A DNA stretch of 64,000 nt, taken from sequence record PV682554.1; one strand, given 5' to 3'. The position numbers and the translations under genes are program-made. Shown in pieces: positions 37,033 through 37,230 of the stretch. The notes beneath the pieces are model-generated. The model was given only the letters and a program-made list of their open reading frames with translations. It did not search any database and had not been told where the DNA came from. This DNA is from Escherichia phage 92CQ. How positions within the stretch are numbered: the first letter of the stretch is position 1; each line of letters starts with the position of its first letter.

Positions 37033-37230
37033 ATTATTTAAAGTTTTTACAGATTTTTGGGTACAAATTTAGAAAATGAAAAGTTCAAGTTTGGTCAAAA
37101 TTATTTAAAGTTTTTGTATGTATTTCTATCCAGATTTTGAAAATGAAAACTTCAATTTTTTAAAAATTCCCCAGTTTATTTAAAGTTTTTTTGCCTTTTT
37201 CCGTAGAAAAATCAAAAATGAAAAGTTCAA
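37033..37230. repeat. three tandem 68-70 bp direct repeats (iteron-like)
   Basis: Each unit carries TATTTAAAGTTTTT and GAAAATGAAAAGTTCAA at fixed spacing (about 37035, 37102, 37177). Confidence 0.6.

Follow-up and report, generated by a model that had tools for sequence, protein, structure and literature searches.

Three direct repeats in a conserved non-coding control region of the phi92-like phage 92CQ: a probable iteron-like array of protein-binding sites

Introduction

What is the function of three widely spaced direct repeats in the non-coding DNA of Escherichia phage 92CQ? A first-pass annotation of the 64,000-nucleotide stretch analyzed here (PV682554.1, referred to as the window, whose coordinates are used throughout) read them as iterons of a replication origin or as arrayed binding sites for a regulator, and named a tandem array of phage-specific promoters as a further possibility. 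Phi92-like and rV5-like phages, which are widely isolated, serve as components of therapy cocktails. Our literature search found no transcriptome studies for Stephanstirmvirinae or Vequintavirinae, and no published discussion of this repeat. The repeat is thus undiscussed in the literature searched and already visible in the databases: the GenBank records of phages alia and inny (NC_052655, MN850601) carry "repeat_region" features at the identical locus (97-99% identity), which mark units 1-2 in alia and fall under the array match in inny, and which are annotations without a functional note.

Results and Discussion

Genomic context

Phage 92CQ is a phi92-like myovirus (Justusliebigvirus, Stephanstirmvirinae). 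When the 2.5-kb region 36000-38500 was used as a query, it matched Escherichia phage KKE7M at 99.7% identity and about 50 further records at 96-98%. Four records of about 146.4 kb labelled as "Campylobacter phage" (MG065639, MG065645, MG065656, and MG065689) are 99.6% identical to 92CQ over the array region, and they probably carry a wrong host label or represent contaminant coliphages.

The array lies in a gap of about 1.5 kb that is nearly free of genes (Table 1). As the first-pass annotation had stated, this is non-coding DNA between the NADAR gene and a cluster of Fur-like palindromes. The same annotation had placed the repeats at the boundary between late and early transcription blocks, and this wording proved inaccurate, since the switch in transcription and GC skew is located not at the array but near 32.5 kb: the GC-skew minimum coincides with the divergent-transcription switch there, and the block upstream of the array is a short plus-strand operon beside the replication genes, not a late block. 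Within this operon, a gene for a CapR/T5orf172-type homing endonuclease (35273-36262) separates the AAA ATPase gene from the NADAR gene; it is missing at this place in the Klebsiella and Citrobacter relatives, differs in length in alia and JohannJBalmer, and is probably a mobile insertion.

Table 1. Coordinates of the repeat units and of the surrounding genes and elements in the 92CQ window
Feature	Position	Strand	Remarks
Tail-fibre genes	1-11681	+	
Replication and nucleotide-metabolism genes	11717-32490	-	
DNA polymerase	15019-17598		in the minus-strand replication block
Primase/helicase	18094-19866		in the minus-strand replication block
Short operon	32550-36814	+	AAA ATPase, CapR/T5orf172 homing endonuclease, NADAR
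NADAR gene	36263-36814		Pfam E 2.5e-36
Tandem CTGATATTT motif	36801-36819	+	NADAR stop codon; left edge of the non-coding region
Near gene-free gap, ~1.5 kb	36815-38346		holds the array
Very AT-rich DNA of low stability, candidate unwinding element	36881-37080		left flank and unit 1
Repeat unit 1	37029-37095		A1 37031-37048, 22-23-bp spacer, B1 37072-37088
Repeat unit 2	37096-37171		A2 37098-37115, B2 37139-37155, then conserved linker AAAAATTCCCC
Repeat unit 3	37172-37240		A3 37173-37190, B3 37214-37230
Fur-box-like palindrome cluster	37255-37367		7-1-7 boxes at 37256, 37279, 37308, one mismatch each; degenerate copies to 37367
GC-rich non-coding block, 47% GC	37366-37597		anchor CCGGCGAT at 37507
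Near-consensus sigma-70 promoter, TTGACA-17-TATACT	37598-37626	-	leftward towards GC block, Fur boxes and array
88-aa ORF (ORF88)	37629-37895	-	phrog_19316, no Pfam family; inside the non-coding region
Long series of small genes of unknown function	from 38347	+	

Structure and uniqueness of the array

Each repeat unit is bipartite. Motif A, TATTTAAAGTTTTT, is present in three exact copies starting at 37035, 37102, and 37177, the positions at which the units had been placed before, and motif B, GAAAATGAAAAGTTCAA, follows at 37072, 37139, and 37214 with 0, 1, and 1 mismatches, a match count that was reached in none of 100 shuffles. The offset from A to B is 37 bp in all three units, the unit periods are 67 and then 75 bp, and successive half-sites are therefore 37/30/37/38/37 bp apart. 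The number of units that had been annotated was thus confirmed, while the period of 68-70 bp has to be replaced by the two measured values; likewise, a second motif does follow the first in every unit, at a gap of 22-23 bp rather than "about 25 bp". Tandem Repeats Finder reported only part of the array (37029-37159, period 67, 2.0 copies, score 171), and a direct-repeat search returned three copies of 79 nt with 70-72% identity. No further copy of motif A or B, mismatches allowed, was found in the 64-kb window or in the complete 148.8-kb genome of KKE7M.

The GC content of the array (37029-37240) is 22%. Together with its left flank it ranks third among the 200-bp windows of the genome in order of instability (z 3.67), low duplex stability alone not being equivalent to unwinding, and the array itself ranks in the top 0.5% of the genome for instability; the least stable DNA of the whole genome is the terminal repeat, not the array. 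We also considered intrinsic bending by phased A-tracts and rejected it, as the 10-11-bp periodicity was weak, inconsistent, or absent.

Conservation in Stephanstirmvirinae

We compared the array with those of seven diverged relatives, namely Citrobacter phage Tr1, Klebsiella phages KP2025, FKP3, phi1_175008, and KP13-26, and the Phapecoctavirus phages anhysbys and ASO2A. In the MAFFT alignment all seven had the three units, and pairwise identity between genomes was 79-93% for motif A and 70-78% for motif B, compared with 41-61% for the A-B spacers and the flanks. There was not a single gap column in the three A-B spacers (22-23 bp), and the starts of the A motifs were 66-67 and 75-76 bp apart in six genomes; in Phapecoctavirus they were 66 and 72 bp apart, and unit 2 was degenerate. 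Among close relatives, the array was 97.3-100% identical, while the surrounding 2.5 kb, genes included, was 96.5-97.6% identical in most cases.

In most lineages motif B reads AAAACnAAAATTTAAARTTT and so repeats the core of motif A, ATTTAAARTTT, which gives six core sites in the relatives. In the E. coli lineage, motif B was altered jointly in all three units to the form found in 92CQ, and the motif B copies are accordingly more alike within 92CQ (identity 0.78) than they are to the orthologous units elsewhere (0.60). Taken together, the conservation of the motifs, the saturation of the spacers, the invariant spacing, and the concerted change are the signature of stereospecific protein-binding repeats. 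Judged from these sequence patterns, we consider it likely that the array is an iteron-like set of binding sites for a lineage-specific protein which would build a complex of fixed geometry. The earlier idea of arrayed iteron-like binding sites is thus backed by motifs that are better conserved than their spacers, by indel-free spacing, by the concerted motif B, and by the absence of the motifs from the rest of the genome.

Counterpart array in Vequintavirinae

The same idea gains from a second phage subfamily with a matching three-repeat layout. In the Vequintavirinae phages CR9, BIS47, phiTE, and Av-05, three direct repeats occupy the position equivalent to that of the 92CQ array; their units have the form GGTTCTCGATCG ... 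ATCGTATT and their periods are 74-78 and 63-67 bp, while phage W70 has 4-5 shorter units. The two arrays resemble each other in the number of units, in the similar period, and in the position between TGATATTTG motifs and the Fur boxes and GC block. They differ in the internal distance between half-sites, which is about 23 bp in Vequintavirinae and 37 bp in 92CQ, and in the sequence GATC, which is contained in the Vequintavirinae units and absent from the 92CQ array. GATC sites are present in many replication origins.

Local and ungapped comparisons of the two arrays gave no similarity above that of shuffled sequences in either orientation. The order of the periods is mirrored, being 66-67 and then 75-76 bp in Stephanstirmvirinae and 74-78 and then 63-67 bp in Vequintavirinae, which would fit an inversion of the whole array, without sequence similarity behind it. 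Homology in reverse orientation was considered and gained no support: a 17/18 match (ACTTTTCATTTTCTAAAT) is confined to the E. coli lineage and the similarity does not exceed that of shuffles. Across both subfamilies, the number, period, and position of the repeats are kept and the repeat sequence is lineage-specific, while the Fur boxes and the GC block have also kept their sequence. Unrelated repeats at one conserved position are what one would expect if the sites co-evolve with a specific binding protein.

The composite control region

The analysis defines a composite control region that consists of a lineage-specific triple repeat, boxes for the host Fur protein, and a GC block conserved in both subfamilies. 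In Vequintavirinae the upstream gene ends with TGATATTTG motifs, after which come three repeats, Fur-like palindromes, the GC-rich block, and a minus-strand sigma-70 promoter. The TGATATTTG-type repeats (TGATATTT(G), 2-4 copies) were found at or just past the stop codon of the upstream gene in every lineage examined of both subfamilies, and the TGATATTT(G) motif is rare elsewhere, with 9 copies on both strands in 64 kb. The position of the minus-strand promoter (37626-37598) is also conserved in the relatives.

Fur boxes of the 7-1-7 type (TGATAATnATTATCA, 0-1 mismatch) number five in the whole 148.8-kb genome, where about 0.05 would be expected per 60 kb. Three of them adjoin the array and the remaining two, at 48724-48738 (perfect) and 48919-48933, lie in the terminal-repeat region, so that the five bracket an early block of 11.7 kb; boxes with two mismatches are also present at 47775 and 47833. 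The GC-rich block is 70-87% identical in more than 200 records of Stephanstirmvirinae and Vequintavirinae phages. It had no match in Rfam and did not show an excess of folding energy, and covariation was limited to a single pair on each strand.

ORF88 is 65-69% identical among E. coli phages of four genera, an unrelated small ORF takes its position in the Klebsiella and Salmonella relatives, and its distribution tracks the host rather than the phage lineage. We considered its product as the array-binding protein and rejected it: because the ORF is common to E. coli phages with three different array types at the identity given above, it is not the specificity partner of the array.

The array as a candidate replication origin

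The array lies in non-coding DNA and recurs nowhere else in the genome. Conservation is seen in its motifs but not in its spacers, it has a fixed geometry, and it is neither a set of promoters nor a structured RNA. What such an array does has to be judged from sequence throughout, and we infer all functions discussed below on that basis. Replication origin is the single most likely function, and we propose it tentatively. According to this proposal, the bipartite sites would be bound by a sequence-specific DNA-binding protein, presumably encoded by the phage and co-evolving with each lineage, and this protein would build a defined nucleoprotein complex on the six half-sites. The array, the Fur boxes, the GC block, and an inward-facing promoter follow one another in about 0.8 kb of non-coding DNA that forms a conserved control region, and the complex would lie where this region is richest in AT and melts most easily. 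The complex would most likely mark the origin of phage replication, where the DNA could open and the helicase could be loaded on the array and its left flank. Transcription that starts at the promoter at 37626-37598 may activate or prime the origin, as is the case for lambda ori and for the origins of T4 and T7.

The origin is made plausible by unique iterons, meltable DNA, a promoter firing inward, and a replication module close by. The array shares with the iteron origins (the O-protein iterons of lambda ori, P4 ori/crr, T4 oriE, P1 oriR, and plasmid iterons) the clustering of directly repeated copies of a specific motif at one locus, conservation of the motif over the spacer, concerted evolution and differences between lineages, AT-rich meltable DNA alongside, and transcription directed inward. 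Iteron origins carry at least three direct repeats of a motif at one locus, and the array has three of A and three of B. Their repeats, of about 20 bp, are contiguous or phased with the helix (~11 or 22 bp), whereas the units of 92CQ are bipartite and far apart, with half-site distances that do not follow such phasing. Iteron origins also have sites for host factors and a cognate initiator gene nearby, and the 92CQ array has neither: matches to the DnaA and IHF consensus with one mismatch occurred in and near the array at background density and none was conserved, no consensus DnaA box was found in 36815-38346, no initiator gene lies within or beside the array, and no initiator-like domain was found in the neighbouring genes. 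The AAA+ ATPase 2 kb upstream was rejected as an initiator, as it showed generic AAA similarity only; a homologue of rV5 gp075, which is annotated as a replication initiation protein, was not found, and the annotation of Bas62 contains no initiator. Further, the GC skew follows transcription and has no origin-like switch at the array, and the G-richness that would make the minus-strand transcript prone to R-loops is modest and inconsistent between lineages. The array departs from classical iterons in being bipartite, widely spaced, placed beside Fur boxes, and one module of a control region shared by two subfamilies. A link of the array to an insertion-free intergenic region of about 2 kb reported for phage Bas54 (HIDEN-SEQ preprint, 10.1101/2025.11.20.689424) was considered and gained no support; no region like it was seen at the divergent junction of rV5. 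If the origin is confirmed, the region would be a handle for engineering and for studies of replication, and its exact motifs and spacings are now given and can be mutated.

The evidence for a binding array (motif conservation, fixed spacing, and concerted evolution) applies equally to an operator or architectural site for a phage transcription regulator, which together with Fur would switch the promoters of the control region or of the early operon, with replication uninvolved. The position of the array between two transcription units and next to three Fur boxes would suit such a role, as would the promoter-like sites within the palindromes and the strong minus-strand promoter 350 bp away. 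However, a distance of 770-1030 bp separates the array from the early promoters predicted at 38006, 38183, and 38267, no promoter overlaps the units, and three bipartite sites spaced by about 70 bp exceed the needs of a simple operator; we regard a purely regulatory array as the next most likely role, though an improbable one.

Genome ends and the parallel with phage T5

The physical left end of the genome was placed at about 48,987 of the window by means of the PhageTerm-based records of BME3 and FKP3, for which direct terminal repeats (DTR) of 342 bp (PMC12210895) and 317 bp (PMC11663894) were described. The array is 11.75-11.96 kb from this end, or 7.9-8.0% of the genome, and the palindromes and array together lie 7.8-8.0% from the mapped end. 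Positions 47525-49238 form another long non-coding stretch, in which the physical end and the DTR of about 340 bp are found together with several families of short repeats and the DNA of lowest stability in the genome. In the BME3 record (PP239276.1), positions 1-788 are duplicated at 146169-146956 and positions 1-342 occur again at the very end, and in the FKP3 record (PP895363.1) the 317-bp DTR is also present at 501-817; both duplications probably arose artificially when the DTR was added to the assembly.

In T5, the DNA of the first-step transfer makes up 7.9% of the genome, and "Repeat Region 3" is a candidate injection stop signal (Davison, bioRxiv 10.1101/866236). The 92CQ array could correspond to this region and, together with the Fur palindromes, delimit on the inner side about 11.7 kb of early genes that would enter the cell first, with a role in staged DNA entry or early DNA handling; we think this reading unlikely. 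The two regions share more than 1 kb of untranslated DNA with repeats and palindromes at about 8% of the genome from the left end, Fur-box-like palindromes with a direct-repeat array on their inner side, and a conservation far better than that of the neighbouring early genes. In the T5-like Salmonella phage Spc35 (NC_015269), walking inward from the end, DnaA boxes are followed by Fur-like palindromes and then by an array of GTCGGATTTGCACA direct repeats, of which eight copies are present in the locus and five adjoin the palindromes; palindromes and repeats stand 7.6-8.3% from the left end, and their order relative to the end is identical to that in 92CQ. The palindromes are not termed Fur boxes in the Davison preprint (10.1101/866236). 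In a blastn search, the 92CQ palindromes had a weak match (E 9e-4) in T5-like phages, located at the inner end of their left terminal repeat; the interval between end and array in 92CQ holds only small genes of unknown function, and the only other Fur boxes of the genome are in the terminal repeat.

Against the correspondence, two-step transfer has never been reported for the phi92-like group, and the match at 8% is based on two phage groups only. 92CQ is a myovirus whose terminal repeats measure about 340 bp and not 10 kb, and its region stands outside any long terminal repeat of the T5 kind with A1/A2 pre-early genes; homologues of A1, A2, and dmp were not found, and the proteins of the early block match only PHROGs of unknown function. 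The repeat sequences differ, the paired DnaA boxes in the arrangement IRD'-spacer-IRC', which Davison favoured as the stop signal, are absent, and the sequence similarity is limited to the Fur-like palindromes and possibly convergent. That the array, Fur boxes, and GC block form, by analogy, the inner boundary of a first-entering early segment and would be functionally equal to the T5 injection-stop region is in our judgement quite improbable. If it were true, three mutually unrelated groups of large phages of enterobacteria, the T5-like, rV5-like, and phi92-like phages, would all have direct repeats and Fur palindromes at a distance of about 8% from the end that enters first. Staged entry of the genome, or an early checkpoint gated by iron and Fur, would then extend far beyond T5, the 60-year-old question of the T5 stop signal would become approachable by comparison, and early phage development would be linked to the iron status of the host. 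The comparison also bears on the preferred reading of the array as an origin: the origins of T5 map mid-genome (10.1101/866236), and by analogy, a repeat-plus-palindrome region that is not an origin in T5 would count against an origin in 92CQ. In Spc35, we also observed two TTATCCACA DnaA boxes beside the palindromes and repeats at the inner end of the left terminal repeat (~8.9-9.9 kb of the record).

Promoter, RNA, coding, and packaging alternatives

The tandem promoter array of the first-pass annotation gained no support. Three tandem promoters in the manner of the T7 A1-A3 cluster, served by host sigma-70 or by a phage-modified RNA polymerase, might be suggested by a unit period of about 70 bp, which is near the RNA polymerase footprint, by the likeness of motif A to the published distal UP-element consensus (10/11), and by the position of the array upstream of the early region. 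A sigma-70 scan, however, found one weak minus-strand site specific to unit 2 and nothing common to the units: no -35/-10 pair with a 16-18-bp spacer was conserved at one position across units or lineages, and the -10-like GAAAAT was not conserved in the relatives. A T4-like late promoter was rejected as well, since TTTAAATA does occur in the reverse complement of motif A, yet TATAAATA and TTTAAATA are not enriched and stand at or below expectation genome-wide. The motif is found at no other gene in 148.8 kb, and we consider tandem promoters very improbable.

That the array works as an RNA, as a type III antitoxin mimic (pseudo-ToxI), a protein sponge, or a source of small peptides, is hardly credible: phiTE, a member of the wider phage group, encodes a pseudo-ToxI (PMC3475682), the half-units of about 37 nt are near the 36-nt ToxI repeat, and read-through from flanking promoters is possible, but the folding energies equal those of shuffled sequence on the two strands (z +0.78 and +0.19), Rfam has no family in 35500-39500, the unit lengths are unequal and the spacers unconserved, and the phiTE locus is elsewhere, at 106.7 kb. 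ToxI and pseudo-ToxI consist of abutting repeats of equal length (34-40 nt) that fold as RNA behind an upstream promoter, an anatomy that the 92CQ array does not fit, so the mimic was rejected. Mini-ORFs starting from an ATG in motif B are missing in the relatives and no conserved ORF was found in the array; a packaging site is ruled out by the physical ends, which are 11.7 kb distant.

Several tandem repeats of period 9 (GGAGACAAG-type) are located at 7713-8233 within a plus-strand ORF of 653 aa in the tail-fibre block, and they suggest a collagen-like Gly-X-Y stretch.
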